Positions 3,099 to 41,600 of a DNA stretch of 64,000 nucleotides are shown here, in pieces (positions within the stretch are counted from its first letter, which is position 1; every line of letters begins with the position of its first letter). Below the pieces are notes generated by a model that saw only the letters and a program-made list of their open reading frames with translations, did not search any database and was not told the origin of the DNA. Made by a program: the position numbers and the translations under genes. Source of the stretch: an uncultured Planctomycetia bacterium. Its GTDB lineage: Bacteria > Omnitrophota > Gorgyraeia > VGKH01 > JBHPFN01. The stretch lies in the NCBI GenBank assembly GCA_964406665.1, contig CAYOSQ010000001.1:135412-199411 (forward strand). Reading direction: 5' to 3'.

Positions 3099-4202
3099 AT
3101 GGATATCAATAAGAACCCAAAGAAATATCACAGGATAAAAAATTTACTTTCGTTCCTGGATATCATCTTACAGGGTTCAATTTTATTGATAATTACGTTA
3201 TCCGGATTCTCTCTTTTCTTGAAAAATCAGGTGTCTGGAGTGTTTGAGAACTTTTATTTAGTTGTTGCCGGATATATCTTTTTGCTTGCGACAATTTTTT
3301 ATTTTATTACATTGCCAATAAGCTTTTTTGAAAACTATTATTTAGAACATCAATATAATCTTTCAAATCAAAAAATAACAAGCTGGTTTAAAGATAGTCT
3401 AAAAGAAACTATCATTGGATTATTGATTTTGCTAATCTGTGGAGAGTTTGTCTATTTTATCTTACGTAATTTTTCGGAGATTTGGTGGATTTTTGCCGGA
3501 TTTTTCTGGATATTTATAAGTGTAGTGTTGGCAAAAATTACCCCAACGTTGTTGATACCGTTATTCTATAAGTATATTCCTTTGGAAAAAGAAGAGCTGA
3601 AGGATAAAATTTTAAAATTGTTCAATACGCGTAAAGTTAAGATTAAAGATGTATATGTAATTAAATTTTCGGAGAAAACTAAAAAAGCTAATGCCATGGT
3701 TTGCGGTTTTAGTAAAAACCGTAGGGTAATTTTAACCGACACGCTTATTAATAGTTTTTCCGACGAGGAGATTGAGCAAGTCGTTGCCCATGAACTAGGC
3801 CATTATTGTGGTAGAGACATAACGAAGTTACTTTTTTTAAATTCAGTATGTTGTTTCCTGGCATTTTTTGTTGCTGATAAGGTTATAAGCACAACAGCTT
3901 TAAGATTCGGTTTTAGCGGTTTAGATGATATTGCCTTTTTTCCGATTTTGCTGTTGAGTCTCGTTGGAGTTGCTTTTTTGCTTTTACCTTTTCGTAACTG
4001 CTTTTCCAGATTTTTAGAGAAACGAGCGGATTTGTTTAGTTTGCAACTTACCAAAAACTCCCCAGCATTTATATCAGCCATGAATAAATTAGGTAGTTTG
4101 AACCTTGCAGATTTTAAGCCTTCTATTTTAGTAGAAATTTTTCTCTACAATCATCCTCCGATTGGAAAGAGGATTAAATATGCAAAAGAATTTAAAATAT
4201 GA
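3099..4202 (+). CDS. M48-family (Ste24/HtpX-like) integral-membrane zinc metalloprotease
   Basis: Multi-TM N-terminus, HELGH zinc motif (VVAHELGHY), downstream glutamate (EKRAD) and the C-terminal NHPPIGKRI motif typical of M48. Confidence 0.7.
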   Translation: MDINKNPKKYHRIKNLLSFLDIILQGSILLIITLSGFSLFLKNQVSGVFENFYLVVAGYIFLLATIFYFITLPISFFENYYLEHQYNLSNQKITSWFKDSLKETIIGLLILLICGEFVYFILRNFSEIWWIFAGFFWIFISVVLAKITPTLLIPLFYKYIPLEKEELKDKILKLFNTRKVKIKDVYVIKFSEKTKKANAMVCGFSKNRRVILTDTLINSFSDEEIEQVVAHELGHYCGRDITKLLFLNSVCCFLAFFVADKVISTTALRFGFSGLDDIAFFPILLLSLVGVAFLLLPFRNCFSRFLEKRADLFSLQLTKNSPAFISAMNKLGSLNLADFKPSILVEIFLYNHPPIGKRIKYAKEFKI

Positions 4203-6151
4203 AAAAGAGAAAAAAACATATTAATTCGGATCGGCGCAAATATCTAAGACTTAAGAGTGTTTTTCCTGTTGAGTTTAGGATTATGTCAGATAAGGATGAA
4301 CCATGGCAACAGGGGTTTACTTCTGATATAAGCAAAGGAGGTATTTGTCTAAAAGTTAACAACGTAGATGATAAATGGTTTTCTCAGCTTCAAGAAAAAG
4401 GTGTGGATATATCTTTACAGATAAATATTCCTATGTCTGCCGCAGCTACGCGTGCGGTTGCAAAAATTGTCTGGGTTAAGAAGGTCAAAGTAGGTGCTCT
4501 AAATCAATGTTTAATGGGCTTAGAATTTTCAAAGATAGATTCAGGAAATATTAACGGTATTGTACGCTATGGTCGCTGGATGGTGTATTCTGGTAAGGTT
4601 GCCGTAATAGCAATCTTGTTTTTGGCAACTTTAGCAGGTAGCATATTTCTAAATAATCAAAAGATGAGAAAAGAAAATGAAACATTAGTCGAAAAGTTAG
4701 TTGATAGCGCTAAAGAGGAATCAAAAATAAACAAACAGTTAGAAATTTTAACTGAAAGCAATAACGAAGCAGCAGTTCAGATTGAATCTTATTTAAGTAA
4801 AGTATCTAATTTGGAGATTAGAATTAATGAAGTAAAAACGCAAAAAGATAAAGACATGCTTAAGCAATTAGATAGTTTGAAAAAAGAGCTAGCTATCGCT
4901 GAAGAAAAAAAAGAAACCTTAGAGTTAAAATTAGCAGGTTCTAAACAAAGAAAAGAGTTAATTGATAAGGTTTTATTTTCTATAAAGGAGGAAAAGAAAG
5001 ATTTGCGGAAGGCTATGATTGATAAAATGTATAATTGGCTTGTTGTTCATCAAAACCCTCGTACTGGATTAATAATCAGCTATGAGGGGGATAGGCGTCT
5101 TCGGGACTGGGCATTCATTTATGATCAAGCCTTGGCCTCTCAGGCGTATATTCTATTCGGTGATTATGATCATGCTGAGAAGGCGTTCAATTTTTTCTTA
5201 AGACAATCGCATAAACAAGGACAGTTTTCTGGTTTTGCCAATGCCTACTATGCTTCTACAAGTAACGTAGCAGAACATGCTGTACATTGTGGTCCAAATA
5301 TTTGGCTGGGGATATCTTTGCTTCATTATCAGAGAGCAACCTTAGATGCCACGTATCTTCCTTTGGCTAAGAAAATTGCTGACTGGCTTATCAGGATACA
5401 AGAGCAAGATCCTTCTGGAGGTTTACGCGGAGGTCCTTCAGTTAACTGGTTTGCAACTGAGCATAACCTGGATGGCTATGCATTCTTTAACATGTTATTT
5501 GAGATAACAAATGAGGCCAAATACAAAATAGCTAGAGATAAAATCCTAAGCTGGTTGATTACCCATGCTTATGACCGCAAAGAAATTCCGATTAACCGTG
5601 GTAAAGGAGATTCTACCGTAGCAACTGATACATATGCCTGGTCAATTGCAGCTATAGGACCTAAGAAGCTCAAGAGAATAAAGATGGACCCAGATGAAAT
5701 TATGGCGTTTGCAGAAGATAATTGTGGTGTTTTTGTAGAATATGAAAGACCTAACGGAGAAAAGGTTGATGTTGAGGGTTTTGATTTTGCCAAATATCGT
5801 AATATGCCCCGGGGTGGAGTCATCTCTTCCGAGTGGACCGCACAGATGGTATTATCTTTTAAGATAATGCAAGAATATCATTTGAACCAGAATAATTTTG
5901 ATAAAAGTGTTTATTATTCTAAAAAGTATACCCATTTCTTAAATGAACTTGAAAAGCTACTTATTTCATCGTCTTCTCCGACGGGTCAAGGGGAAGGATG
6001 TCTTCCTTACGCAACCGAGGATAATGTAGATACCGGTCATGGGTGGAGAACGCCTCAGGGTCGTACCACTGGTTCGGTCGCCGGAACAACGTATACAATA
6101 TTTGCTCAGAAAGGTTTTAATCCGTTAAAGTTTTCTAAAGATGAAAAGTAG
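4199..6151 (+). CDS. PilZ-domain c-di-GMP receptor fused to TM helix, long coiled coil and a C-terminal alpha/alpha-toroid (glycoside-hydrolase-like) domain
   Basis: N-terminus carries both PilZ signatures, RRKYLR (RxxxR) and DISKGG (DxSxGG). A hydrophobic helix (VAVIAILFLATLAGSIFL) follows, then about 150 aa of heptad-rich coiled coil and a roughly 370 aa Trp/Tyr-rich domain. Start overlaps the upstream gene's stop (ATGA). Confidence 0.75.
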   Translation: MKKRKKHINSDRRKYLRLKSVFPVEFRIMSDKDEPWQQGFTSDISKGGICLKVNNVDDKWFSQLQEKGVDISLQINIPMSAAATRAVAKIVWVKKVKVGALNQCLMGLEFSKIDSGNINGIVRYGRWMVYSGKVAVIAILFLATLAGSIFLNNQKMRKENETLVEKLVDSAKEESKINKQLEILTESNNEAAVQIESYLSKVSNLEIRINEVKTQKDKDMLKQLDSLKKELAIAEEKKETLELKLAGSKQRKELIDKVLFSIKEEKKDLRKAMIDKMYNWLVVHQNPRTGLIISYEGDRRLRDWAFIYDQALASQAYILFGDYDHAEKAFNFFLRQSHKQGQFSGFANAYYASTSNVAEHAVHCGPNIWLGISLLHYQRATLDATYLPLAKKIADWLIRIQEQDPSGGLRGGPSVNWFATEHNLDGYAFFNMLFEITNEAKYKIARDKILSWLITHAYDRKEIPINRGKGDSTVATDTYAWSIAAIGPKKLKRIKMDPDEIMAFAEDNCGVFVEYERPNGEKVDVEGFDFAKYRNMPRGGVISSEWTAQMVLSFKIMQEYHLNQNNFDKSVYYSKKYTHFLNELEKLLISSSSPTGQGEGCLPYATEDNVDTGHGWRTPQGRTTGSVAGTTYTIFAQKGFNPLKFSKDEK

Positions 6152-8972
6152 AATCAGAATATATTATCATTTTCAATTGTTTGGTTTGATCATAGCCGCT
6201 GTTATGTTTTTTTATTCATATGCATATGCTTATAAACAGCCGCATTATATTATTGACGCCACCTTAGATGTTTCCAAGCATGTTCTTCAGGCCAAGGAAA
6301 GGGTAACATTTACCAATAATATTGACAGAGAAATCAAAGAAGTATTCTTTCATATTTATCCCAATCGGAAATTTACTGATAAAGAAAAAGATTTTATGTT
6401 GCGTTACGGTGGATACTTCAAGGTGAATCTATATCCTGAAGGTTTTCAGAGTTCTAGCATGACAATTGATTCTATTAAAGAAAATGGAAAACACCTAGAT
6501 TTTGAGATTATTTCTGAAGATGAAACTATTTTGCGAATTGGCTTACCCCAGTCATTATCTAAGGGGAAGTCGGTTGACTTAGACATAGAGTTTTCAGTGG
6601 TTTTGCCTCATGCATATGGTAGGTTGGGTTGGAATGATAATGTAATTAGTCTTATGCGTTGGTATCCCATTCTTTCGGTTTTAGACGAGGAAGGATGGCA
6701 CAATTATCCTTTTTATCCTTATCATCAGCCATTTTTCTCTGATTCCGCCCGGTATCAAGTAAACTTAACAATTGCCAAAAATTATGTGGTTGCACATACA
6801 GGAAGCGTGCAGGAAGAATTTATAAATTCCGACGAAACAAAAACTATTAAAATAGATTCACAGCTGCCTGTGCGGGATTTTGCTCTTGCCGCCAGTCCTG
6901 ATTTCCGCATATTTTCACTAGAGCATAATGATGTAGAAATAAGATCATACTATTTGCCTGGAGATGATTTCCTTGGAAAAAAAGCAGCTGAGTTTTCTTT
7001 GGCTTTGATGGAATATTATGCTGACCGCTTTATTGATTATCCTTACAAGACATTTTCTATAGCTTCTACCTATCTAGGTTATGGAGGAAATCAATCTTCA
7101 GGAATTATTTTTATCGACACTCGAGTTAACAAACTTCCTAAATTCCTTCTACGATATTTTGATTTTCTTATTTCTCACGAGACAGGGCATCAATGGTTTT
7201 ATAATTTGGTAGGCTCTGATGAATATAAAGAGATGTGGATAGATGAGGGCATCAACTCTTATTTTATTTCAGAGTATTTAGAAGATAAATACGGTCCTGA
7301 TGCCCAAGTTATGATTTTACCTAAATGGCTTCAGCCCTTCGTTCCAAATTTTTCTTTTAAAAGTGGTAGAATCGTACGTTATTTTTACCTGGCTAAAAGA
7401 GGATTAGACAGGCCTATCTTAGGAAAGCTTTCTAGTTTTAAAGAACCAAGCAGCATTTTTGCTTTGGCTTACGGAAAAGGTTCTATTGTAATTGAGATGT
7501 TGCATTCTTTAGTTGGTGAAGAAGCTTTTGCAAGAATAATGAAACAATATTTTAATAAATATACTTTCAAAAATATTTCTGTTTCTGATTTTATCAGGAT
7601 TTGTGAAAAAGAAAGCGGTAAAGACTTAGATTGGTTTTTCGATCAGTGGCTTAATACAGATAAGACGTGCGACTATGCTGTTAATAAAGTAAATAAAAAC
7701 AAAGTTGTTTTAGAAAATCGCGGTGAGATAATTATGCCGGTTAAAACGGAAATTTATTTTTCTGATGGTTCAGTTTTGAAAGATTCTTGGAACGGAGAAG
7801 GAGAAAGTAAGGAAATAGAAATTTTAGAAACTAGTCGTATAGAAAAGATTGTGGTCGATCCTGATAAGGCGATGTTGGATTTAGATAGGACTAATAATTT
7901 TTGGCCACGCTTGTTTGAAACCAAAGCAGTTCCGCTTTACTACGCTGTATACGAAATCCCTGTAGTTTTACCTGAAGATTCATATAGCTTTATTTATGGT
8001 CCGGAATTTATGAAAAATAGTGTAGGTATGCGCGTGAGCTTGCAAAAGCCTTACGATAATAATTTAAGTCTATTTACCGGATATGATCTTAATTCCAGCG
8101 TAATAAAATCAGTACTGGGATTTGAACAGAGAAACTTATTTAATAAACAACTTGCCGGTGGAATTGAATTTTTCAGAGACGAAGATTTAAGTGGTAAAAA
8201 AGAGGATTTAGATGGCGGCAAAATTTATTTGCGACGAGAACTTTGGCCAGCAGCCTATGGATTAACAGAGGTCAACGATCACATTACTTTTTATCTTTTG
8301 CGTAACCGAAAATTTGAAGGAAGTTTTATTGCATCAGGCAGAGAGGATCAGGAAGATATTTCGTATTCTAGAAAAGATGAAGCCATTACAGGAATTGATT
8401 TTAGCTTAGATAGATCCGGACCGTATTTTGATCCCGATTCCGGATACAGAGCTAAAGTTACCTTAGAACATGCAGGACATTTTTTAGGTGGAAAAGAATC
8501 GTTTTCCAGAGGGACAGTTGATTTCACAGGATATCATGGATTTTTGCCAGAGCAAAAACTTGCACTGCATCTTAAGAGCGGATGGGGTTTTCCTTCGGAC
8601 AAAAATCTGTTTGAATTAGGCGGCGACGAAAGTTTAAGAGGGTATGGCCGCAAGGCAATGCGCGGATCCCGTTTTTTCTTAGGAAGCCTGGAATACCGCT
8701 TTCCTTTAATTAGACAAACAAATTTGCGTTTATTAGATAATATAATTTCCATTTCTGCTTTTCAAGGCGTTGCTTTTTTTGACGCTGGTAGAATATGGCA
8801 TGGAGATGTAGAAAAAAGTAATATTAAAAAAGATGCTGGTTTAGGTTTAAGGGTTCATGTTGATATTGGTTCTTATTTAGAGAAGCTTATTTTGCGAATT
8901 GATGTTGCCCAGGCGATTAATGAACCCAAAGAAGACCCGCATGTGTGGTTTGGAATAAGTCACGCATTTTAA
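6141..8972 (+). CDS. Fusion protein: M1-family (gluzincin) metallopeptidase domain plus C-terminal Omp85/D15-type outer-membrane beta-barrel
   Basis: Signal-peptide-like N-terminus. HETGH-X18-E (HETGHQWFYNLVGSDEYKEMWIDEG) is the exact M1 HEXXH-X18-E signature. The C-terminal 300 aa has alternating beta-strand character (LRGYGRKAMRGSRFFLGSLEYRFPL) and ends in ...GISHAF with a terminal Phe, typical of Omp85/BamA-family barrels. Confidence 0.7.
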   Translation: MKSRIRIYYHFQLFGLIIAAVMFFYSYAYAYKQPHYIIDATLDVSKHVLQAKERVTFTNNIDREIKEVFFHIYPNRKFTDKEKDFMLRYGGYFKVNLYPEGFQSSSMTIDSIKENGKHLDFEIISEDETILRIGLPQSLSKGKSVDLDIEFSVVLPHAYGRLGWNDNVISLMRWYPILSVLDEEGWHNYPFYPYHQPFFSDSARYQVNLTIAKNYVVAHTGSVQEEFINSDETKTIKIDSQLPVRDFALAASPDFRIFSLEHNDVEIRSYYLPGDDFLGKKAAEFSLALMEYYADRFIDYPYKTFSIASTYLGYGGNQSSGIIFIDTRVNKLPKFLLRYFDFLISHETGHQWFYNLVGSDEYKEMWIDEGINSYFISEYLEDKYGPDAQVMILPKWLQPFVPNFSFKSGRIVRYFYLAKRGLDRPILGKLSSFKEPSSIFALAYGKGSIVIEMLHSLVGEEAFARIMKQYFNKYTFKNISVSDFIRICEKESGKDLDWFFDQWLNTDKTCDYAVNKVNKNKVVLENRGEIIMPVKTEIYFSDGSVLKDSWNGEGESKEIEILETSRIEKIVVDPDKAMLDLDRTNNFWPRLFETKAVPLYYAVYEIPVVLPEDSYSFIYGPEFMKNSVGMRVSLQKPYDNNLSLFTGYDLNSSVIKSVLGFEQRNLFNKQLAGGIEFFRDEDLSGKKEDLDGGKIYLRRELWPAAYGLTEVNDHITFYLLRNRKFEGSFIASGREDQEDISYSRKDEAITGIDFSLDRSGPYFDPDSGYRAKVTLEHAGHFLGGKESFSRGTVDFTGYHGFLPEQKLALHLKSGWGFPSDKNLFELGGDESLRGYGRKAMRGSRFFLGSLEYRFPLIRQTNLRLLDNIISISAFQGVAFFDAGRIWHGDVEKSNIKKDAGLGLRVHVDIGSYLEKLILRIDVAQAINEPKEDPHVWFGISHAF

Positions 8973-8991
8973 ATAAGAGGAGGATTGAGCA

Positions 8992-10752: not shown

Positions 10753-13149
10753 TTATTCTCCAGCTGTATAAAGCCCAGCGGGATGATGTGAAAAATTATA
10801 GTCGTTATCTACCAAACGAATTGTTATGCTAGCAAAATACCCAGGAAGTTCTCCGGGAGGTAATACATCTGGAGTGTAACGTGTTTCGTATTGGAATATA
10901 TTGTTTGATGAACTCGGACCATGAGAAGTCATGTCCCACGGCCAGCCCGCAAGTCCTTCGCTTCTGCAGGGTGATCCGGGAAAAGCAGAAGTAAATTCTG
11001 GGTTAGTACATTTTCTGGATTTGTTCCAATCAAAGATAGGCCAGCTAGAACCCTCGTCAAATTCTTTCCATTCAAAGTTGTTGTTTTCCAGATTAATAAA
11101 AGAACCAACTACTTTCCTGGTATATCCTGATTCTCCCCATCTTTCTAGCACTGCAGGTGGGTATGCTCTATAGCCGACAATAGAAACATAGTATTCAACA
11201 ATACCATTGTCATCTTCTCCGGCAACAGGAGCCATCTCGTCTTCATATAGCATTTCCCAATGGCCTTCATGCCAATCTTCATCTTCTACATAAGGATAAT
11301 CTGGATTATGAATTGTGTAAGGCAGCCCTCCTTCTGTAATTCCTGCGATACGTTCCATTTCATCAAGAAAACTTTCAGATACCGTAAAAGCCCTTTTTGC
11401 AGCGATTATTGCTGAAGGCTGCCAGTCATGACCTGCTTCTCCAACGTTATAATCACCCATGAGATAGATATTTTCTCTGGAAACTGTTGTTAGCGGCGCT
11501 AGTAGTGAGCGAGCCTTTGCTAGTGCTAGGTCGTAATCAGAATAAACAACACCATTTTGTGGCCAGATTCCATCAGTCTTCATTCTGTAAACATCTAGAG
11601 AGATAATATTTTCTTTTAATTGCCAGCTGTTGGTGTCGTGAAAAGAACGGTTGCGAGCTATCGTTTTGCCGCTGACGGGGCTTACATAGTCTCCATCAGG
11701 CTCAGGGCATATTAATAGTGGTTCAGGTTGTCCTTCTATATGAACTTGTATAGCAATTTCTTTGCTACATTCTTCAAAATTATTTATATACATACCCTCT
11801 GACTGAGCTTGGTTGAAATAAGTTGCTGAGTTAATTCGCGGAGGAGTAATGTGTTCAGCACCGGTATTGTGTTCAAGTATAACACCATCTAAAGAAGTGG
11901 GCATCCAGTCTTGCCAAGCACCAAGCTGCTCATAAGTGTTCGTAAAGTTAGCAGGTATATCTACAGGACTAACTGGATTAGGGTAGTAGTAACGAGTACC
12001 GCCCCACCAAAGGCCACCGCTTGTTCTCCAGAAGAGATCCCAGTCATAACTAGAACTAAGCCTTGTCGGGATTCTTTCTTCTGGCTGCCCGTTGGCGTTA
12101 ATCCTTACAGAGCGGTGGTACCGTTCTCCCGGAGCAGCATCTCCATAAATATAGTAATCACTATACATGTAAAGATCTTCGTTAATTAAATTTGGGTCAT
12201 GTCCTGTGGCAAGCTCACAGTTTCCTTCAGGAAGAATACAGTTAGCAAAGTCGCCTTCACAAGTTGCATATAGCTCGTTGCCAGGGCCAGCAGGGAGCTC
12301 ACCATTAAATGCGGGATTATCCATAAATAGTCCACTTCTTTCGCCGTAGACTTTTCCATCATGATGATGATAGTAGTCGTATTCCTCACCATTTAAATTC
12401 TGTGGGTCCCACCAGGGGTCACGCATCCAGTAGAGTATGTCATTCCAAGAAGGAGCATCGCCAATGACGTTACCATATTGATCATATGCTACATCTTCAG
12501 GAGGCATATAGGCATATGTGTTGTAGCTGATATATTGAGCAGCTTCTAATGTATTGATATTTTGAATAACTACACTATCAGCAAATTTTAGATTTCCGTT
12601 TGTGTGAATACTACCGCCTTCAGCTAAAAAAGTTGTCCAACCCATATACATACTGTAAGGACTAAACCAAAAGTATTCATACAGAGTGCTGATTGATACT
12701 TTAGCAGCCATGAGGTATGAGTTATCGGTTGTATCGCTTACGCCTCTGGCTAGAATAGCGAACTGTCCGTCTCCTTCATCTAGGTAGACTTTGGTAAAGA
12801 ATTTATCGTTTAAGGCTTTGTATTCTCCTGTTCCACCATCATGTTCTGCAATTGTGTCTAAAAAAACATGTAGAGGAGTACCGTAATCATATAAGAAAGT
12901 AGGGTCGGTATCCTCGGGGTCGAAGTAATGCGTTTTCCAGCTTGTGCCGTGATTTATTAGTTCGTAGTAGGCACACTCGAATCCTTTTTCAGCATTATAC
13001 TTTGCGCTAAGATCGCCGTAATTTTCACGAGCAATCAAATCTTCATTAATACTTTTTGCAAAGATAGCAGCAGAGAGAATTGTAAGCACTATAATAGTTG
13101 CAAAAGAACCAACGAGTAAGAAACCACATTTATTTCTTAGTCTTATCAT
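10753..13149 (-). CDS. Large secreted PilX-N-like (non-canonical pseudopilin-type N-terminus) putative pilus tip or adhesin protein, copy 2
   Basis: N-terminal MIRLRNKCGFLLVGSFATIIVLTILSAAIF resembles the PilX_N or GspK-type hydrophobic anchor. The roughly 770-aa body is rich in Trp/Tyr/Asp. It is paralogous (about 35% identity, shared blocks such as HTNGNLKF and GDYNVGE) to the ORF at 14815..17115. Confidence 0.55.
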   Translation of the reverse strand: MIRLRNKCGFLLVGSFATIIVLTILSAAIFAKSINEDLIARENYGDLSAKYNAEKGFECAYYELINHGTSWKTHYFDPEDTDPTFLYDYGTPLHVFLDTIAEHDGGTGEYKALNDKFFTKVYLDEGDGQFAILARGVSDTTDNSYLMAAKVSISTLYEYFWFSPYSMYMGWTTFLAEGGSIHTNGNLKFADSVVIQNINTLEAAQYISYNTYAYMPPEDVAYDQYGNVIGDAPSWNDILYWMRDPWWDPQNLNGEEYDYYHHHDGKVYGERSGLFMDNPAFNGELPAGPGNELYATCEGDFANCILPEGNCELATGHDPNLINEDLYMYSDYYIYGDAAPGERYHRSVRINANGQPEERIPTRLSSSYDWDLFWRTSGGLWWGGTRYYYPNPVSPVDIPANFTNTYEQLGAWQDWMPTSLDGVILEHNTGAEHITPPRINSATYFNQAQSEGMYINNFEECSKEIAIQVHIEGQPEPLLICPEPDGDYVSPVSGKTIARNRSFHDTNSWQLKENIISLDVYRMKTDGIWPQNGVVYSDYDLALAKARSLLAPLTTVSRENIYLMGDYNVGEAGHDWQPSAIIAAKRAFTVSESFLDEMERIAGITEGGLPYTIHNPDYPYVEDEDWHEGHWEMLYEDEMAPVAGEDDNGIVEYYVSIVGYRAYPPAVLERWGESGYTRKVVGSFINLENNNFEWKEFDEGSSWPIFDWNKSRKCTNPEFTSAFPGSPCRSEGLAGWPWDMTSHGPSSSNNIFQYETRYTPDVLPPGELPGYFASITIRLVDNDYNFSHHPAGLYTAGE

Positions 13150-13185
13150 GATAATTACCTCTTTAGCTGTCTAGGAAAACACCAG

Positions 13186-14775
13186 CTAGTTTCTTAAAGT
13201 AACAGAGCTTGTAATAGAAAATTCAAAAGGACCTGACATCATAGAATCTTTTGATGCTTCAATGATTATATTGACAGAGTCCGGATTGCTATCTTTAGGA
13301 TTTCCGCTTTCATCAAAACCTTGGAAATCAACCCGTATTATATTATCTGCGACAACCGAGAATGTATAGTTGTCTATGCTTCCCATATCTTCGGCAAAAA
13401 CTAAATTCGAGAAGAATTTTTTTATAGCACAAAATGGAGGACAGCCTCCTGGGTCTCGACCCTGTGCTGGCAGATCTTTATTATGCACCAGATATCCATT
13501 AGCAAAGTAGTTGTGATATGGGTTTACTTCAATGTTGTAAACTATTATCTTTTCATCAACAGCTTCTATGCTGGTAATTGTTTCTTCTTTTCCTTCCTGG
13601 GTAAGAAGAATATCACCTTGTTTTAGCTTACCTGCTCTAACCCATGCACCATTAGCGAAGAAAGGATGTTCTGTTGTTACTTTGATGCCATCATTGATTA
13701 TCAGATACCCTTGGACCTCATGCATGAATACTTCTTTTACTGTGTCTCCTAGCTTAGTTCGAGAATTTTCACTATAAGAGGTTACTTTATCTCCTGTAAC
13801 TATATTTTCAATAAACTTGTTAGTGCCATCAGCCATAAGAATAGAAGTGCCGGGTAAGAGACAGCCTTTATTATGAGCTAATATGTTATCAGCATAATAT
13901 GTATGATAAGGGTTAACCTCAAGGTTGTATACCAACACAGGTTCTTCGATCCTTTCTATGCTGGTGATTGTTTCTTTAGAGCCGTTTACCTTGGTTAACT
14001 CATCACCTATATTAAGCAAGCCGATATCTACCCATCTACCTTTATGAAATACTGGGTGGTTAGGTGTTGCCTTGATGCGACCATTGATTAAAAGATAGTT
14101 ATCTTCTTCATGAATAAATGTTTCCACTACCTTATCAGACTTATTTTTACCAGATTCCTGATCATAGGCTAATACAGTGTCTCCTACTTTAATTGCTTCA
14201 ATATCTTTAGTTGAACCATCAGCTAAAAGAATAGGGGTACCTGCGAGAAAACAAGGATCGCATTCACCGCAGTCTAATTCACAAGTATTACAGTCTTCTC
14301 CAATCTCTGGTTCGCAGCCTTTGATGCCACAATGGTTAGTTGCTATTAAGCGCATAAGTCTTCCAGCGTTCGCGGAAGAAAAATTACTATGGGGTACTAA
14401 ATATACAACTTCTTCATTAAGAATACCATCAGCGCCCCATTTAATTTCTCCATAGGGATCTTCTTTATAATATGTGCCCGTGATAGGATCGTCAGTAATC
14501 TGCGGTGTCTGTAATTTTATAAGATGTCCGATACAGGTATTAACGTGTTCTCCGGTACACTCTTCAATAAAAACATGACCGGAATCTGATTGTTCTAGCT
14601 CTTTGACCATGCGTTCCATTGAGTAGCGGGCCTTCTGTTGTAGGTCAACCATTGAAGAACTTCTAATCCAGGTATTTCTTCCTATTATAATAGTACCGAT
14701 AACAATACCAAGTATAAATATTGCTATAACAACAGTTGCCATAGTTTCAGAAAGGGTAAATGCTTTTCTGTTCAT
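13186..14775 (-). CDS. Prepilin-type N-terminal domain protein with Cys-rich repeats and two tandem Hint (bacterial intein-like, BIL) domains, copy 2
   Basis: N-terminus MNRKAFTLSETMATVVIAIFILGIV is a type IV pilin-like leader plus hydrophobic helix, with Ala at -1 and a conserved Glu+5. A Cys-rich EGF-like segment (CGIKGCEPEIGEDCNTCELDCGECDPC) follows. Two Hint modules each have an N-terminal Cys (CFLAGTPIL, CLLPGTSIL), a TxxH block (TPNHPVF, TEHPFF) and a terminal HN (LAHN, LVHN), then Lys rather than a nucleophile. Confidence 0.7.
   Translation of the reverse strand: MNRKAFTLSETMATVVIAIFILGIVIGTIIIGRNTWIRSSSMVDLQQKARYSMERMVKELEQSDSGHVFIEECTGEHVNTCIGHLIKLQTPQITDDPITGTYYKEDPYGEIKWGADGILNEEVVYLVPHSNFSSANAGRLMRLIATNHCGIKGCEPEIGEDCNTCELDCGECDPCFLAGTPILLADGSTKDIEAIKVGDTVLAYDQESGKNKSDKVVETFIHEEDNYLLINGRIKATPNHPVFHKGRWVDIGLLNIGDELTKVNGSKETITSIERIEEPVLVYNLEVNPYHTYYADNILAHNKGCLLPGTSILMADGTNKFIENIVTGDKVTSYSENSRTKLGDTVKEVFMHEVQGYLIINDGIKVTTEHPFFANGAWVRAGKLKQGDILLTQEGKEETITSIEAVDEKIIVYNIEVNPYHNYFANGYLVHNKDLPAQGRDPGGCPPFCAIKKFFSNLVFAEDMGSIDNYTFSVVADNIIRVDFQGFDESGNPKDSNPDSVNIIIEASKDSMMSGPFEFSITSSVTLRN
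13468..13868. repeat. About 400 bp direct repeat, roughly 95% identical to 17436..17836 (Hint-domain cassette shared by the two pilin-BIL genes)
   Basis: Direct sequence comparison shows long identical runs, e.g. gcagatctttattatgcaccagatatccattagcaaagtag. Antisense ORFs at 13568..13777 and 17536..17730 translate almost identically. Confidence 0.8.
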
Positions 14776-14814: not shown

Positions 14815-17115
14815 TTAATAATATTTAACATAATAATAATTGAATTCAGAGAGAGGTATTTCCATGTAGATTTGTTCGGTGAAACCAACATAATCTTCTG
14901 GAGGATACTCGCCTGTTTCATTGTATGATTTATCATATTTGAATTCGTTATTTGCAGCATAAGGACCAATGGCACCCATTGAACTTGGCCAGCCAGGGTT
15001 TGTGCGTTCTGGTCTGGCGACAGTGTTATCATATTGGCCTGGATTTCCAAAATCTTCTTCACTGATTCTTATCTTGGAACCAAGGACAGTTCTTTTACGC
15101 TGCGTCCAATTGCTAGGAGTGTTATTTAAATCTCCCACATCTTGATAAAAGCTCCAGTTTTCTAAAACCTTGGGTTCATAAGCACGGTGACCGATAGCAG
15201 AAATATTATAGGTATAGTCTTTATCTACATTATTGGCAACTGTTCCGTCATATATCGGCAGAGTTAACGGAGGAGGTTTTTCCAGCTCTTGGCATACCTC
15301 TTCTTTTGGATCGCAAGGCGGAGGATAGGCCTCTGGGTTATCTTTTAAATTAGCCATCCAGTTGTATCTATCACCAGGGTCTGCTGTTAAATCCCAGTTA
15401 GGTTCATAGGGATATTCAATATGAAATCTGGTTATTGGTAGAGCACTAGGATAGTTAAACACATCAGATAAAGTATATAAATCCATTGCACAGATTGCTG
15501 CAGAAGGTTGTTTATCAGTTGCGAGATCACCAATGTTATAATCTCCTTTTAAATGCAAGTTTTTCTCAGTTATCCAGGTAACCCCACCTTCTGGTAAAAC
15601 TTCGGCATTATCAACAACTATATTAGCTTCGGAATAGATTAATCCGTTTCCAGGAGAATTTCCGGATGCAAGCAGTTCGGAAAAATTAAATTCTGTTACG
15701 ATGTTTTCTTGCATGCTGTGAGTGTTTATAAAAGTTTTAATTTCTGCCACAAGGTGTCCGCCTATCCATACTTCTCCTGAGGCATCAGATGGATATGAAA
15801 CGCGCGCAATCTGTACGCTGATTTCAGTTCCGTCTTCGTTTGACCCGATATATATACCTGCATCTTGAGCTGCATCTGCATAGTTTGAAGCGGCTACTGA
15901 CAAGGGTTCAATGTATTCTGCTCCAGAAGAGTAATCTTTTATAACTCCGGCTAGATTTGGTTCTGAAGCTGTATAATCAGATAGAGCTTGGGCTTGTGAA
16001 GCAAAAGAAGTGTTTAGCCATTTAACTGTTATTTCTGATTCTGGGAATCCCCAGGCTTCAGTAATGCTCCAGTATTTGTTTATGGTGTATGGTGCCTCTA
16101 ACCTGTTGGGAAGTCTGGTTTCGTTAATCCAGGCAATCCTGTCATCGTCAGCATAGTTTTCTGGGGCTTCATCAGGAAGGGGAGGATCTGGGTCAATATC
16201 AGGATCCCAGATTGCCTGAGCGGCATTGCGAATATTATACTTATCTCCATACACATGTCCATAAGATCTATTTTCGTATGAATACTCTGAAAACATTCCT
16301 CCTGAATATGTTTCTAAAGATTCTCCGGAATCTGGCTCGTAATTTGCTGAAGTCCAAGGTGCATGATTATATTTATAGTAGCTTCTCCAGGTTTCATGTG
16401 GGCAGTCTGTACATCCGGGAGTTTCATCCATGAAGTCATCGATGAATTCATAGGGAAGCCATGACTTGGCATAATATTGAATATAATCTTTTGCAGAAAA
16501 TTCACTAACATTAAAAATTTCAACGGAGTTCTGAAATATGAAGCTTCCATTAGTATGCATCCTTCCACCGTCAGCAAGCCATGTTCTACTACTTAAATAA
16601 TATGTTGAAGGAGAAAACAAAAAATAATCATAAAGAGATTGTGAGATAGTTTTAGACATAAATATTCTTTCAGTGCCTTGATTTTCACTTAGTCCTTTGG
16701 AATATATAAAATAGTCATCACTTGAAGGGCTTTTAAAAACTTTTACAGCAAAGTCTAGCCCTAACCCAGATCCTTTAGAAATATAGCATCCGTAGGTAGG
16801 ACTTTCTGGATCTTCATCTATCGCGGTTAATCCAGATAGCGTTACCGTTGGAACAGTGCCTGTGGGAACAAGCAGGCCATCTGCCTTTACCGTATGAGTA
16901 ACCCAATTGAGACTATGTGAAATTTCATATCTTGCCAAATTCAATCCGGCATCTGCAGCACACTTAGATTCTATATTACTTTGTTGCCTGCGTATGTTTA
17001 AGTTGTCGTTTGCTATTCTAAAAAAGAATGCTGTGGCCAATACAGAAAGTGCTGTAACAACAATGTAAGTGCCAATGAGTACAAAACCCTTTTTGTTAAG
17101 TATTTTTACGTTCAT
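14815..17115 (-). CDS. Large secreted PilX-N-like putative pilus tip or adhesin protein, copy 1
   Basis: N-terminal MNVKILNKKGFVLIGTYIVVTALSVLATAFFF (PilX_N-like). 766 aa and paralogous to 10753..13149. Follows the pilin-BIL gene by 27 nt on the same strand. Confidence 0.55.
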   Translation of the reverse strand: MNVKILNKKGFVLIGTYIVVTALSVLATAFFFRIANDNLNIRRQQSNIESKCAADAGLNLARYEISHSLNWVTHTVKADGLLVPTGTVPTVTLSGLTAIDEDPESPTYGCYISKGSGLGLDFAVKVFKSPSSDDYFIYSKGLSENQGTERIFMSKTISQSLYDYFLFSPSTYYLSSRTWLADGGRMHTNGSFIFQNSVEIFNVSEFSAKDYIQYYAKSWLPYEFIDDFMDETPGCTDCPHETWRSYYKYNHAPWTSANYEPDSGESLETYSGGMFSEYSYENRSYGHVYGDKYNIRNAAQAIWDPDIDPDPPLPDEAPENYADDDRIAWINETRLPNRLEAPYTINKYWSITEAWGFPESEITVKWLNTSFASQAQALSDYTASEPNLAGVIKDYSSGAEYIEPLSVAASNYADAAQDAGIYIGSNEDGTEISVQIARVSYPSDASGEVWIGGHLVAEIKTFINTHSMQENIVTEFNFSELLASGNSPGNGLIYSEANIVVDNAEVLPEGGVTWITEKNLHLKGDYNIGDLATDKQPSAAICAMDLYTLSDVFNYPSALPITRFHIEYPYEPNWDLTADPGDRYNWMANLKDNPEAYPPPCDPKEEVCQELEKPPPLTLPIYDGTVANNVDKDYTYNISAIGHRAYEPKVLENWSFYQDVGDLNNTPSNWTQRKRTVLGSKIRISEEDFGNPGQYDNTVARPERTNPGWPSSMGAIGPYAANNEFKYDKSYNETGEYPPEDYVGFTEQIYMEIPLSEFNYYYVKYY

Positions 17116-17141: not shown

Positions 17142-18419
17142 TTATTCATTTACATTTACTGCTGAATGTAATGTTACCTCTAGCTCTCTACCGAGTAGAA
17201 ATATATTCTTTTTAGCCAAAATAGTTATTTTTATTACTTCCGGATTTGCTGCATCCGGTATTGCTGTAAATGTTATCCTATCTATATTTTGAGTGAGAAC
17301 ACGTTCTCCATAAAGCATGTCCGCATATGCGCATGGTGTTAAAAATATTGATCTAAAGAATTTATTAAGCGATGTCCAATCACCACAGTCTGGTGGGCAA
17401 TCGCCACCCCGGAGTTCCATCTGATAGTGCATCGCGGGCAGATCTTTATTATGCACCAGATATCCATTAGCAAAGTAGTTATGATATGGGTTTACTTCAA
17501 TGTTGTAAACTATTATCTTCTCATCAACAGCTTCTATGCTGGTAATTGTTTCTTCTTTTTCTTCCTGGGTAAGAAGAATATCACCTTGTTTTAGCTTACC
17601 TGCTTTAACCCATGCACCATTAGCGAAGAAAGGATGTTCTGCTGTTGTTTTGATATTATCATTGATTATCAGATATCCTTGGACCTCATGCATGAATACT
17701 TCCTTTACTATATCTTCCAGCTTAACTTGAGAGTCTTCATCATAAGAGGTTACTTTATCTCCTGTAACTATATCTTCAATAAATTTGTTAGTGCCATCAG
17801 CCATAAGAATAGAGGTGCCTGGCAAGAGACAGCCGGGATGGCAGGGACCGCAATCTGTTGAACAGGTACTGCAGGTTTCTCCTAGCTCTGGCTCACATAT
17901 TTCATTGCCGCAATGAGCAGGATTACATTCTCCGCAGTCTGGAATGCATTCATCGCAAATTTCGTAAGGGGTTTCGCATACCTCGTTTCCACAAACTGGA
18001 TCGATTGGTTGTTTTCTTACTAAACTGCCTTGATTTTCTCCTTGAGCCGGAACATAGTAGTAACCAAATTCATCAGGCCATCCATCAATACCCCATTTGA
18101 TTTGACCGGATTCATCATAATATGTTCCTGCTACTGGATCGTTGGTTATAATCGGGGCCTGAAATTCAATTACATCTCCTACACATTCAGTTTCTATGCA
18201 TCCAGTAACTGTGATGTGATCTGCATCTAGAGATTTTAATTCGTTTACAATTCTATCCATTGCAAACCGTGTAGATTGTGTCAGATCAGCATATGCAGAA
18301 TTAGTTAAGAATGTATCGCGACCAACTACAAGGGTTGAGGTAATCATTAAACCAATACCAACACAAATCGCCGTTACAACTAATCCTTCAAAAAGTGTGA
18401 AAGCTTTTCTATTCATCAC
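17142..18419 (-). CDS. Prepilin-type N-terminal domain protein with Cys-rich repeats and one Hint (BIL) domain, copy 1
   Basis: N-terminus MMNRKAFTLFEGLVVTAICVGIGLM (prepilin-like). Long Cys-rich stretch (CGNEVCETPYEICDECIPDCGECNPAHCGNEICEPELGETCSTCSTDCGPCHPGC). Hint domain CLLPGTSILMADG...TAEHPFF...LVHNKD. AGGAGG RBS upstream. First gene downstream of the riboswitch. Confidence 0.7.
   Translation of the reverse strand: MMNRKAFTLFEGLVVTAICVGIGLMITSTLVVGRDTFLTNSAYADLTQSTRFAMDRIVNELKSLDADHITVTGCIETECVGDVIEFQAPIITNDPVAGTYYDESGQIKWGIDGWPDEFGYYYVPAQGENQGSLVRKQPIDPVCGNEVCETPYEICDECIPDCGECNPAHCGNEICEPELGETCSTCSTDCGPCHPGCLLPGTSILMADGTNKFIEDIVTGDKVTSYDEDSQVKLEDIVKEVFMHEVQGYLIINDNIKTTAEHPFFANGAWVKAGKLKQGDILLTQEEKEETITSIEAVDEKIIVYNIEVNPYHNYFANGYLVHNKDLPAMHYQMELRGGDCPPDCGDWTSLNKFFRSIFLTPCAYADMLYGERVLTQNIDRITFTAIPDAANPEVIKITILAKKNIFLLGRELEVTLHSAVNVNE
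17436..17836. repeat. About 400 bp direct repeat, roughly 95% identical to 13468..13868
   Basis: See the paired repeat entry. Covers the Hint domain of copy 1. Confidence 0.8.
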
Positions 18420-38646: not shown

Positions 38647-41600
38647 GTGGTTTCTATAAAAAAGTGGGGAAAATTGCGGAACAGATGTATGAGTGTGTTT
38701 ATTGCACTCATTTTTTTATTCAATTCACTTACCCCTGCATATGCCTGGAGGCCAGGTAATCGTGGTGAACAAAGTGCGCTTGAATCTTTCGCGGCCGGAA
38801 GTCTTTCCGGAGGAATATCAGCCCTTACCATAGCTATGAATCCTATTGCTGGTGCACTAAGCAGCATAGCTTCAAATGTAGCCAGTACGGTTGTATATTA
38901 CAATGATTATGACAGCCAGAGCAAGCCTTGGTTTGATCTAAAGCTTTTTATTTTCTGGGGTCCTAAGATAAAAACATTTACCAAGGCGGAAGCAATAGGT
39001 ATGATTGCCGGTATTGTAGTTGGTGCTGCAGCAGGGTTTGTTGATGGAGCCATAACTGGAAATTCTGAAGAAATAGCAGCAGATGCTGCAGCTGATACTG
39101 GTTCTACGGCAGTTGTAGGCACAACCATTGGTTCTGTGGCAACAGCTGCCAGTCAAAGCTTTTTTAATAGCATGCTCAACGTTTTAACCAATATCGGTAA
39201 CTGGGTATGGAAGAATATGATTGTTGCTTCTTATAAGAACGCCAAAGAGATTTTATTAAGCCCAATAAAGACTATCATCAAAATTGTAAAGAACTTCAGT
39301 AAGATCATGCGAAGGTCCTGGGATTTATCTTTGTCTCTAGTGAAATCATTGGCTAAAACTCCAGTTGTTATCGCTAAAAATATTAGTAAAATCGCTAGGT
39401 CTATCTATAAAACTGCTTACAAGACAGCAGAGGTATCTTTGCGTTTAGCAAAGGCGTTTGTCTGGAATATACCTACAGGAATGCTCAAAAATGCATATTC
39501 TATGCTTAAGGCAACTTTTAACACTCTTACATCGGGATCATTCTGGAGCAGGACGTTTAATACTGTAGGCAGTAAGGCAGGAGCTTTGTTTAGAACACTC
39601 AGAGGCGCAGCTTCTTCTGTAGCAAAAAACATCGAACAGCTCTTTACTCAACCACTCAGTATTACCTTAAAGAATATAGGAAGGTGGCTTAAAGAGTTAC
39701 CTGTTAATTCAATTAATAGGATAAAAACGCTGGCTAAAAAAATTGGACAGAGAATAAAAAATGTTTCTCAAGCCACCAGATTTACAAATCCTTATTATCA
39801 ATATGGTGCCTTAGGGATAAAAGGGCTTCCGGCGTTTTTTGTCCAGCTTGCAGCAGACATAACTTCTGCAATGTACAGAGCTGCTTTTCAAGATGCAACT
39901 AAGGAAATTCTTGAGAAAAAACTTGGTCTGGATGAAAGCATTGCAGAGATCGCCGCAACAGAACTGATTAATAAATTTGCCGCTAAAACAATCAATCATA
40001 ATATTCTTAAAGCATTCGGCTCTGCTTTTGGCTGGGGCATAACCGCATACGGTGGTTTCATAACCGGCGAGATGCAAGAGCGTCTAAAATCAATCGAAGA
40101 GCATGGAAACAACGGAATAGAAGTGCAGGGTATAGTCGTCTCAGAAGATTCTTCTAGTCCAGATACATCAACCCAAGCCTATAACATAAAACTCAAACAG
40201 CTTGTTGGCGCAGGTGCTTTATTAAAAGATGGCACCTGGGTAAGACTTAGTGATGTTGAAGATGCCTCAGAGATAGTAGGCATAGCTGTAGCAACCGATC
40301 GAGGTGTTATCTTAATTGAACCTAATGTAAATATCATCAGCGCAGTTCAGGGATACAAGCAGGCTTTTATACAGGTAGCCAGATTATATATGAGTACCAT
40401 ATCTATGCCTGCTTCACTGAATCAACCAAGTCAAGATGGTGCTTTATCTATGTTGGTTAAGATAGGTGTACTAAAGCTCTTAAGTTACGGTAGTGGCCAT
40501 AGGGGATCATTGGGTAAGATCTGGAAGAAAAAGATAGCAGAGTTAATAGGTAAGCTTGCATCAGAATCTGCAGACAGTCCTGTGCCATCAGAGGAGCAAC
40601 TTGCAGCTTCAGATGAAAGTGAAAAAACCGAAGAGTCTCGGGAAGAAGCTGTAGAGGTTGCTAGCGCTGAATCCGGGGCATCAGTCCAAGATCAAGAAAG
40701 CTCCTCTGAAGAATCATCATCAGAAGAATCTGCGTCAACTGGCAGGAGAGAGCTTGTGTTAGAAAGCATTTCTGATTCATTTGATTCAAGTGGTAGATAT
40801 AATCCTCAAGCACATCTTTTGCCTTTTGGTGACCATCCTTATGGCGGCGATGGAGGAGGTTCCGATGAGTCTGACGAATCCGGAGAAGAAGATGATTCTG
40901 TGGTTTCAAGCTTTAGCTTCGAAGGAGAAACATTTACATTTGATGATCTAAAAAAAGTAGGAAAAATTTATAGAAGTGGTAGAAAAACAGGGATTTTTAT
41001 TTCTAATGCTATTAGAAATGGTGGAGGCTTACTTTCAGGCGGTGAAGATGAAGAAAGCATTGAGAGCGACGGCGTTATTTATACCAAGGTTGAAAATAGA
41101 GAAGTTATGATTATAGATTTAGAAACAGGAGAGATTAAGCACTTGACTGGTTCTGTAGGAGTCGTTCTTGTTACCCTTAGCGATGGATCTTCCTATTTTG
41201 CATTAGTGGATTTCGTGCAGTTGAAAAAAGATATTCAGGAGAGAAATAATTTTACTGACAGGGGAACTGAAATTTTAGCTTTTCTTCCACAGCCACTAGA
41301 AGAAATAAAGCCCCTACCCCCAAAGGAAGAAGAACAAGAAGAGCAGCCACAACTTCCCGAGCCAGTACATAAGAGAGAAGTTACTGTGGGAGGATCAGCT
41401 GTAACGGCTGCTTCAGAAGAGAGTTTTGATGAATCTGATGAATGGGGAGAGGTTACGCTGAGGCCTGAACCACAAACTCCTGAAGAAGAGCAGGAAGCAG
41501 AAGATAGAAAGGGCGGAGAGCGATTTAGTGTTGATTTAGCAGATGTCCCCGGAGCAGCGCTAGATGTTGGAGAGGCAGTTGTAAAAGTGCCTTTTGGGGT

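Follow-up and report, generated by a model that had tools for sequence, protein, structure and literature searches.

An M1-type zinc peptidase domain joined to an Omp85-type outer-membrane barrel in Candidatus Omnitrophota

The literature defines Omp85 proteins by a barrel together with at least one POTRA domain, with roles in protein insertion or secretion. In PlpD, an enzyme carried on such a barrel, the patatin domain had for years been taken for a secreted one before it was shown experimentally to be periplasmic, and the export of folded domains through a closed Omp85 barrel was judged energetically implausible (PMC11116518). Barrels with non-POTRA N-termini of unknown function were described in 2014 by Heinz & Lithgow as 'WD40-Omp85' and 'Metallo-Omp85'; the 'Metallo' group carries PF00149, a phosphoesterase, TolB is given as periplasmic, and M1 or 'peptidase' fusions are mentioned 0 times in the survey (PMC4104836). 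Here, a 64,000-nucleotide stretch of DNA (the window) from an uncultured bacterium of the Omnitrophota (GenBank assembly GCA_964406665.1, contig CAYOSQ010000001.1, positions 135,412 to 199,411, forward strand) was analysed, in which one gene encodes a fusion of an M1-type zinc peptidase module with an Omp85-type barrel.

Comparison with the described systems revealed a partial likeness to each of them. PlpD/FplA (formerly type Vd) shares with the fusion protein the arrangement of an N-terminal hydrolase on a 16-stranded Omp85 barrel that acts as a scaffold and not as an insertase. The enzyme of PlpD is a Ser-Asp patatin phospholipase, whereas that of the fusion is a zinc peptidase; PlpD retains one POTRA between enzyme and barrel, where the fusion has a beta-sandwich and a linker; and PlpD dimerises. 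No patatin or POTRA match could be found in the fusion protein by Pfam, and only the barrel type is shared with the type Vd proteins. By analogy, PlpD, as an enzyme on an Omp85 scaffold, would be the protein that the fusion most resembles. The WD40- and Metallo-Omp85 groups also carry non-POTRA N-terminal domains on an Omp85 barrel. Full-text literature searches turned up no paper describing an M1-Omp85 fusion, and the reference Omp85 survey lacks it, while automatic pipelines already record both Pfam domains on Omnitrophota fusion proteins.

Architecture of the fusion protein

The fusion is an exported protein in which an M1 module with intact catalytic residues is covalently joined to a POTRA-less Omp85 barrel. 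Its order is signal peptide, M1 module, 42-amino-acid (aa) conserved linker and 16-stranded Omp85 barrel ending in ...HAF (Table 1). The Pfam scan identified Peptidase_M1 (PF01433) at aa 289-503 (E 9.9e-25, 87.9 bits, cut-off 27.7) and Omp85 (PF01103) at aa 628-941 (E 5.8e-19, 69.2 bits, cut-off 24). A full-length AlphaFold2 (AF2) model was built with a 65-sequence alignment, and its secondary structure was assigned by DSSP; it reached a predicted local distance difference test score (pLDDT) of 89.4 and a predicted template modelling score (pTM) of 0.89. An earlier note, made from the letters of the window without database searches, had claimed an M1-type gluzincin domain fused to an Omp85 barrel and had proposed the two Pfam models as a check. 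Both domains score above the curated thresholds and the model is a confident one, so the claim holds. The same note had read a signal peptide and an exact HETGH-X18-E signature, and these readings were also borne out. By sequence reading, the N-terminus, MKSRIRIYYHFQLFGLIIAAVMFFYSYAYA followed by YK, shows a basic n-region, a hydrophobic core and an A-x-A site without a lipobox Cys. Segment conservation was scored as the mean top-residue frequency in the family alignment, and no segment scores lower than the signal peptide (0.27).

Table 1. Features of the M1-Omp85 fusion gene and of its neighbours in the window
Feature	Residues or size	Position in window	Strand	Basis or remark
M1-Omp85 fusion gene	943 aa plus stop	6141..8972	+	single uninterrupted open reading frame (ORF)
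Sec signal peptide, ...SYAYA before YK	aa 1-30	6141..6230	+	sequence reading; helix aa 2-25 in AF2
M1 N-terminal beta domain	aa 35-271	6243..6953	+	all-beta in AF2 model
M1 thermolysin-like catalytic domain	aa 276-505	6966..7655	+	Pfam PF01433; helical in AF2
GGNQS at GXMEN position (Glu to Gln318)	aa 315-319	7083..7097	+	alignment with relatives
Zinc site HETGH-X18-E (H346, E347, H350, E369)	aa 346-369	7176..7247	+	unique regular-expression match
Catalytic Tyr444 in AYGKGS motif	aa 444	7470..7472	+	aligned with SYSKGA of PSA and APA
Six-stranded beta-sandwich in place of ERAP1_C/ARM	aa 512-572	7674..7856	+	DSSP on AF2: no helices
Conserved linker, DPD..LD.DRTNNxWP...VPLY..YEIPVFLP.DS	aa 573-614	7857..7982	+	conservation 0.67
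16-stranded Omp85-type transmembrane beta-barrel	aa 615-943	7983..8969	+	Pfam PF01103, AF2, Foldseek
Loop-6 LRGY motif, Omp85 (V/I)RG(Y/F) hallmark	aa 832-835	8634..8645	+	alignment to BamA, TamA
FFDAG, strand-13 FxDxG motif pairing with loop 6	aa 879-883	8775..8789	+	alignment to BamA
Last strand and C-terminal beta-signal, HVWFGISHAF		8940..8969	+	sequence, family alignment
PilZ protein gene	650 aa	4199..6151	+	Pfam PilZ E 4.3e-9; directly upstream of fusion gene
Ste24-like M48 membrane zinc protease		3099..4202	+	Pfam Peptidase_M48 6.2e-28, M48_N 4.1e-19
TPR protein	129 aa	2690..3079	+	Pfam TPR; NCBIfam TPR_END_plus 1.5e-16
Alternating Pfam-less / Hint genes		10753-13149, 13186-14775, 14815-17115, 17142-18419	-	

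The catalytic domain was the most conserved large segment (0.70). The PDB profile search with the fusion protein retrieved aminopeptidase A (E 1.5e-24), and the Foldseek comparison of the full model with the PDB was dominated by IRAP, ERAP1/2, tricorn factor F3 and PepN with E values of about 1e-25 over about 600 columns, the fold similarity that takes in the N-terminal beta domain having an E of 3e-25 over about 600 columns. The Pfam match to Peptidase_M1_N was weak (E 0.08). The features that define the M1 family, namely the HEXXH-X18-E motif, a profile match, fold similarity in the N-domain and the Tyr of YxKG, could all be found. The sequence HETGHQWFYNLVGSDEYKEMWIDE at aa 346-369 is the only HExxH-X18-E within the protein and lines up with the HELAH/HELVH...E of PSA and APA. 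H346, E347, H350 and E369 are invariant in 65 orthologous sequences, as are Y444, K446 and G447. Since the zinc residues and the catalytic Tyr are invariant, the catalytic centre appears intact and the M1 module is expected to be active.

The substrate specificity of the module is a separate matter. In M1 enzymes the GXMEN exopeptidase motif lies 22-38 aa upstream of HEXXH, and its Glu and Asn have been implicated in binding of the substrate amino-terminus and in exopeptidase specificity (PMC2241622). The corresponding GGNQS of the fusion protein lies 26 residues before HEXXH, inside this spacing rule, but the motif itself is absent, as Gln318 stands in place of Glu. The position reads GGNQS or GGTQS throughout the Omnitrophota clade, against GGMEY(P) in relatives outside the clade, both in the FCB-group fusions (the long forms described below) and in the short forms, and the 65 sequences show little or no variation at G315, G316 and Q318. 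The classical M1 enzymes (PepN, ERAP1/2, IRAP, F3 and LTA4H) have the N-domain, the catalytic domain, HEXXH-X18-E and the Tyr in common with the fusion. Unlike them, the fusion protein lacks the large ERAP1_C/ARM domain IV, which caps the active site in classical M1 enzymes, has GGNQS for GXMEN, is secreted and is joined to a barrel. Because the Glu of GXMEN is replaced and the capping domain IV is missing, the database name 'aminopeptidase' is doubtful. The enzyme is probably no classical aminopeptidase, and aminopeptidase specificity should not be assumed from the M1 fold; it may take internal or blocked peptide bonds. Thus, of the designation 'M1 aminopeptidase' in the earlier note, the M1-type zinc peptidase domain stands, while the aminopeptidase part is questionable.

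Between the catalytic domain and the barrel, the AF2 model contains only the beta-sandwich and the linker, with no beta-alpha-alpha-beta-beta POTRA unit, and the Pfam scan yielded no POTRA family at E values up to 0.1. A hidden POTRA between the domains was rejected on this silence of the profiles and on the unfitting secondary structure. The suggestion that an M1 module occupies the place of the POTRA domains is therefore well founded, and the fusion protein belongs with the non-POTRA Omp85 subgroups (noNterm, WD40 and Metallo) and not with the canonical BamA, TamA or TpsB. The conservation of the linker is near that of the catalytic domain, with W588 and P589 nearly invariant in the 65 sequences. 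Both AF2 models, the full-length one and the barrel-only one described below, predict the linker as mostly coil with a short strand and two 4-residue helices, and in hhalign it lines up with the start of the tails of the FCB fusions.

The barrel-only AF2 model (aa 587-943, pLDDT 74) again contained 16 long strands, most of which alternate hydrophobic and polar residues. When this model was compared with the PDB by Foldseek, each of the best 50 matches was to TamA, to Sam50 or to a BamA from one of four species, the best E being 3.3e-11. A soluble beta-sandwich in the C-terminal region was rejected on the 16 long amphipathic strands and on these 50 best matches. The extracellular loops L4 and L6 are of 26 residues each, and the others are tiny (L1 2 aa, L2 4, L3 7, L5 9, L7 9 and L8 7). 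Within loop 6, L832, R833 and G834 are invariant in the 65 sequences and align to the SLRGY of F. nucleatum BamA and the SVRGY of TamA. F879 is likewise invariant, D881 and G883 are conserved in at least 90%, and the motif aligns to the fDAGr of F. nucleatum BamA. W936, G938 and F943 are nearly invariant, and family C-termini read ...W(F/L)G(I/V)xxxF. The barrel fold, the loop-6 RGY, FxDxG and the C-terminal aromatic strand are common to BamA/TamA and the fusion; unlike BamA and TamA, the fusion has no POTRA, far shorter extracellular loops and equivalog scores below cut-off. The NCBIfam models Omp85_fam, BamA, TamA and TamL match the C-terminus, all below their cut-offs (BamA TIGR03303 36.9 of 297 bits, TamA NF047950 17 of 625, TamL 18 of 400), and orthology to BamA, TamA or TamL was rejected on scores that far under the cut-offs. 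No Pfam match to the autotransporter family PF03797 was found, and the barrel is of the Omp85 type with 16 strands, unlike the 12-stranded barrel and lumen-spanning alpha-helical linker of classical (type Va) autotransporters. The 16-stranded Omp85 barrel with a terminal aromatic residue that the earlier note had read could thus be recovered from the PF01103 match, two AF2 models and the ...HVWFGISHAF end, although its length is about 330 aa and not the last about 300 aa.

Distribution within and beyond Omnitrophota

The M1-Omp85 fusion is not an isolated case but a family that extends across the phylum Omnitrophota, and several other phyla have relatives with a cryptic barrel. When 5.8 billion proteins were searched, 410 homologues were obtained, the best 120 of which came from independent assemblies (NCBI, JGI, ENA and Logan). 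These 120 were 48-64% identical to the query, save one 99%-identical partial sequence, and every one carries both PF01433 and PF01103. Two of them are truncated partials of 550 and 833 aa; the others, typically near 940 aa in a range of about 900-1000 aa, align with 95-100% of the query. Where the source is named, the best homologues belong to Candidatus Omnitrophota, and they are labelled 'M1 family aminopeptidase' or, once, 'BamA/TamA family outer membrane protein'. At thirteen independent Omnitrophota loci (L001-L003 and L081-L090), the protein is encoded by one ORF of 934-950 aa. The earlier note had proposed a search for orthologous fusions, and more than 100 colinear full-length orthologues were found in Candidatus Omnitrophota. 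Because they exist, the fusion is not a frameshift artefact; two genes joined by a frameshift were rejected on these orthologues and on the thirteen single-ORF loci.

A species survey, in which one genome per species was scanned with the fusion protein, revealed three Omnitrophota orthologues and many M1 homologues at 21-30% identity, and all homologues found were from metagenome-assembled genomes. The short M1 forms (about 555-715 aa) lack a barrel, and their chains end 3-26 aa past DPxxxxLDxxRxNN, the motif at the close of the beta-sandwich. Found in Fraserbacteria, Thermoplasmata, Thermotogae, Gemmatimonadota and Acidobacteriota at 24-30% identity, they carry either GGMEY(P) or a GGxEx variant, in both cases with the Glu still in place. 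These short secreted M1-like peptidases, mostly of about 580-700 aa, share with the fusion its M1 subfamily, the beta-sandwich and the DPxxxxLDxxRxNN motif; they differ in being barrel-less and in having kept the Glu. The long forms (about 970-1110 aa) consist of the M1 module and a tail of 320-430 aa, and were found in Kryptonia, Calditrichia, Marinimicrobia (some labelled Lentisphaeria), Gemmatimonadaceae, Chitinophagales, Flavobacteriales and other metagenome-assembled genomes.

In these long forms Pfam calls M1 alone, except for a weak Omp85 match in one of them (L040, E 0.0015). The FCB tails nevertheless contain GG.LRGY and F.D.G. A direct hidden Markov model (HMM) search of the tails with the Omnitrophota barrel gave weak partial matches, and hhalign comparison of the Omnitrophota barrel with 29 FCB tails gave a probability of 96.9% (E 2e-10, 312 columns); the FCB tail HMM also matches assorted Omp85 proteins. 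On these profile comparisons, the long-form tails are homologous to the fusion barrel and are missed by Pfam. The FCB long forms thus combine, like the fusion, an M1 module with a homologous barrel tail, and differ from it by GGMEYP, by the lack of a Pfam Omp85 match and by the lack of a PilZ partner gene. The Flavobacteriales long form has thousands of homologues, labelled M1 family metallopeptidase or aminopeptidase N, on which PF01433 is the sole precomputed domain.

The neighbourhoods of the FCB fusions show synteny at lineage level alone. No partner gene conserved across phyla was found next to them, neither a PilZ gene nor any other, and CheB, M14 carboxypeptidase and AspRS look incidental. 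In nine Marinimicrobia-type loci, the M1-barrel gene is followed about 2.4 kb downstream by the gene of a 752-aa M14 carboxypeptidase (in L026 at 11262-13520, + strand), which also has a dockerin and an InhA-like MAM domain. This placement is lineage-specific.

A search with the barrel profile against 1.84 billion cluster representatives gave 3490 matches at E up to 1e-3, of which the 34 below 1e-30 are the core family plus fragments. Distant M1 and barrel fusions of 980-1075 aa were among the matches (P0155, P0156, P0158, P0168, P0171, P0173, P0175, P0179 and P0196); the local M1 profile matches nine of nine, and Pfam finds M1 in all eight that were scanned (P0175 left out). Further proteins join an M1-like N-terminus without HExxH to the barrel (P0174, P0182, P0185, P0193, P0212, P0247 and P0251), the P0185 cluster including members from Nitrospirota. 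By their sequences, they look like pseudo-peptidases kept on an Omp85 barrel. An M1-like and barrel fusion in L040 (1373-4381, + strand) reads AYELTS at the HExxH position. Among the closest other relatives by the barrel profile are proteins of about 930-970 aa that combine Peptidase_MA_2, a PD40 (TolB-like) propeller and Omp85 (P0169, P0181, P0194, P0199, P0201, P0207, P0214 and P0222). They have a zinc-peptidase domain of the MA clan, as does the fusion, which differs in being a complete M1 unit without a propeller. This group corresponds to 'WD40-Omp85', which, judged by the domain matches, seems to hold an unreported zinc-peptidase domain.

Genomic neighbourhood and the PilZ protein

Several envelope proteases cluster at the fusion locus, where the genes of a TPR protein, an M48 protease and a PilZ protein precede the fusion gene (Table 1). 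The PilZ protein consists of an N-terminal PilZ domain, one transmembrane helix (about aa 130-152, hydropathy peak aa 133-152), a charged, heptad-rich and coiled-coil-like stretch of about 125 residues after it, and a C-terminal alpha/alpha domain. The family is Omnitrophota-wide with 1086 matches, some of which have a precomputed GH76 domain (PF03663) in the C-terminal domain; sequence searches of this domain of the window protein against the PDB and Pfam gave no significant match. Such a layout suggests a sensor of cyclic diguanosine monophosphate (c-di-GMP) that would reach across the periplasm.

Of 11 Omnitrophota loci, the window included, 8 have a PilZ homologue next to the fusion gene or with a single gene between. 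It lies directly upstream in the window, L001, L081, L087 and L088, and one gene off, with an HhH-GPD gene between, in L003, L083 and L085. This linkage persists although the remaining neighbours differ between groups of loci. The M48 gene is again upstream of the fusion gene in L002, L081, L087 and L090, and homologues of the TPR protein occur in L001, L002, L081, L087, L089 and L090. At other Omnitrophota loci, an approximately 800-aa TPR-DUF3857-transglutaminase-core protein joins the TPR/M48 block.

The stop codon of the PilZ gene (TAG, 6149-6151) lies beyond the fusion ATG at 6141, which gives an overlap of 11 nucleotides (nt). The earlier note had put this overlap at 4 nt, which is incorrect; the 4-nt ATGA lies between the M48 and PilZ genes (4199-4202). 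Taken alone, the overlapping reading frames suggest that the fusion and PilZ genes are co-transcribed. Downstream of the fusion gene are genes for a nitroreductase, an 85-aa membrane protein and Era. A strong Shine-Dalgarno sequence (GAGGAGG, 8973-8990) lies ahead of the nitroreductase gene's TTG start, 12 nt past the fusion stop, and none of like strength precedes the fusion ATG within the PilZ ORF. A start inside the PilZ ORF without a strong Shine-Dalgarno sequence would be compatible with translational coupling.

Other features of the window could also be recorded. On the minus strand, the genes of two PT-HINT/Hint-domain proteins are interleaved with those of two large Pfam-less proteins (798 and 766 aa). 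The 798-aa protein is kept beside Era in several Omnitrophota loci at just 24-40% identity, and the syntenic homologue in L087 gives, in addition, a pilin-like signal (N_methyl) that is weak. Positions 38647-47349 (+ strand) are taken up by a very large, GTG-initiated ORF of 2900 aa. Near the window edge (122-952, + strand), the HypD match of a 276-aa ORF sets in only at profile position 84 of 351, and the counterpart in L001 has 369 aa; the start of the ORF may have been misplaced, or the gene may be cut short or carry a frameshift.

Probable placement and function of the peptidase module

The reading that appears fairly probable is that the fusion protein is a periplasmic peptidase of altered specificity, tethered to the outer membrane by its barrel and working in an envelope proteolysis module. 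The earlier note had named both a surface-exposed and a periplasm-tethered protease, and the latter is better supported. Strand 1 of Omp85 barrels begins at the periplasmic face, which favours a periplasmic orientation of whatever precedes it. The same orientation is favoured because the patatin domain of PlpD is periplasmic and folded-domain export is implausible, and because a multi-domain zinc enzyme of about 65 kDa is unlike the passengers of autotransporters. Conservation was lower in the extracellular loops other than L6 (0.54) than in the periplasmic turns (0.66), the best conserved of which are T1 (KPYD, 0.83) and T3 (LWPAAYGLTEVND, 0.80), and the functional face of the barrel therefore looks periplasmic. 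The nearest other barrels, with their Peptidase_MA_2 domains and TolB-like PD40 propellers, point the same way, TolB being periplasmic. The conserved position beside a PilZ protein and an M48 protease suggests that the fusion works in a module for envelope proteolysis or its regulation.

From what is established on the biogenesis of outer-membrane proteins, the Sec signal peptide would export the fusion protein, and the machinery for beta-barrel assembly (BAM) would recognise the C-terminal beta-signal and insert the 16-stranded barrel into the outer membrane. The barrel is most likely an anchor or scaffold and not an insertase. The linker would tie the approximately 65-kDa M1 module to the periplasmic end of strand 1, so that the module would lie beneath the barrel in the periplasm and could hydrolyse peptides or unfolded segments near the inner face of the outer membrane. 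Its specificity is probably relaxed or altered, in view of GGNQS and of the absence of a cap domain. It may work in concert with the M48 protease and the inner-membrane PilZ protein, possibly in response to c-di-GMP.

Several points weigh against this periplasmic, module-bound enzyme. The contrast in conservation between turns and loops is modest and rests on the assumed Omp85 topology, and classical autotransporters too have their passenger at the N-terminus and their barrel at the C-terminus. Three of the 11 loci (L002, L089 and L090) have no PilZ gene within 6 kb of the fusion gene, and the synteny may partly reflect the gene order of compact genomes, as Era and an aminotransferase are also conserved nearby. 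Scans for consensus promoters and terminators at the ends of the operon gave counts no higher than those of shuffled sequences. The passenger-then-barrel order is also what would be expected if the barrel were a translocator of type V (autotransporter, or type Vd as first proposed), with the M1 peptidase passing through it or beside it during assembly and then, on the cell surface, digesting peptides from the environment or from prey as nutrients. Omnitrophota could plausibly live by scavenging peptides, the Marinimicrobia fusion is encoded about 2.4 kb from the secreted-type M14 carboxypeptidase with a dockerin, and surface aminopeptidases of the autotransporter type exist, such as AaaA, which is cited in PMC6555100. 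Surface display is nonetheless unlikely. The passenger would be a multi-domain alpha/beta zinc enzyme of about 580 aa with no beta-helix, the linker is predicted without a lumen-spanning helix, loop 6 with intact LRGY and FxDxG would fill the lumen, and conservation is concentrated on the periplasmic turns. The work on PlpD also argues against Omp85 export of folded attached domains, the type Vd passenger being periplasmic (PMC11116518).

Alternatively, the barrel could be a working channel or insertase in which the M1 module replaces the POTRA domains for docking and cleaves polypeptides on their way in or out, or checks and degrades stalled outer-membrane proteins, as a quality-control device in the manner of a fused BamA and BepA. 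The barrel retains the LRGY, FxDxG and terminal beta-signal of functional BamA and TamA, and, as the M1 module has no capping domain IV, the active-site chamber could be closed off by the barrel's periplasmic face. Nearby genes encode the two parts of E. coli BepA, an M48 protease and a TPR protein. Periplasmic quality control has been proposed for enzyme-Omp85 fusions by Heinz & Lithgow (PMC4104836). The neighbouring M48 protein is, however, a Ste24-like polytopic enzyme of the inner membrane (M48_N, five helices) and not the soluble BepA; neither a POTRA nor any sign of a lateral gate could be found in the fusion protein, and the same motifs are kept in PlpD-type scaffolds, where they are structural. 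A coupled channel of this kind is accordingly regarded as very unlikely. An artefact, in the form of two genes joined by a frameshift or of a soluble C-terminal sandwich, would have to accommodate colinear homologues, single-ORF loci and 16 amphipathic strands; no supporting point was found, and its probability is practically negligible. A more far-reaching extension of the periplasmic enzyme would make the fusion protein the outer-membrane end of a c-di-GMP-controlled proteolytic device that spans the envelope, together with a class of barrel-anchored M1 enzymes across Omnitrophota and the FCB phyla. The cytoplasmic PilZ domain would sense c-di-GMP, the coiled coil of about 125 residues would cross the periplasm, and a GH76-like alpha/alpha toroid would dock on the barrel-tethered peptidase, by which proteolysis at the outer membrane's inner face would be switched. 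The logic would be the inside-out signalling of LapD/LapG, with unrelated parts. As a whole, this device is considered quite unlikely.

After PlpD, the POTRA-less M1 fusion adds a second, unrelated enzyme class to the idea of the Omp85 barrel as an enzyme scaffold. The M1-barrel fusion is conserved across a candidate phylum, and the barrel occurs in diverged form in Marinimicrobia, Kryptonia, Calditrichia, Gemmatimonadota and Bacteroidota. The M1 fusions and the MA_2-PD40-Omp85 relatives together suggest that the tethering of a zinc peptidase by an Omp85 barrel is a recurrent solution. Thousands of database entries named 'M1 family aminopeptidase' or 'metallopeptidase' are probably integral outer-membrane proteins. 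If the envelope-spanning device and its wider class were true, an unrecognised class of outer-membrane proteins would take in the thousands of Flavobacteriales proteins that are annotated as soluble 'M1 family metallopeptidase'.

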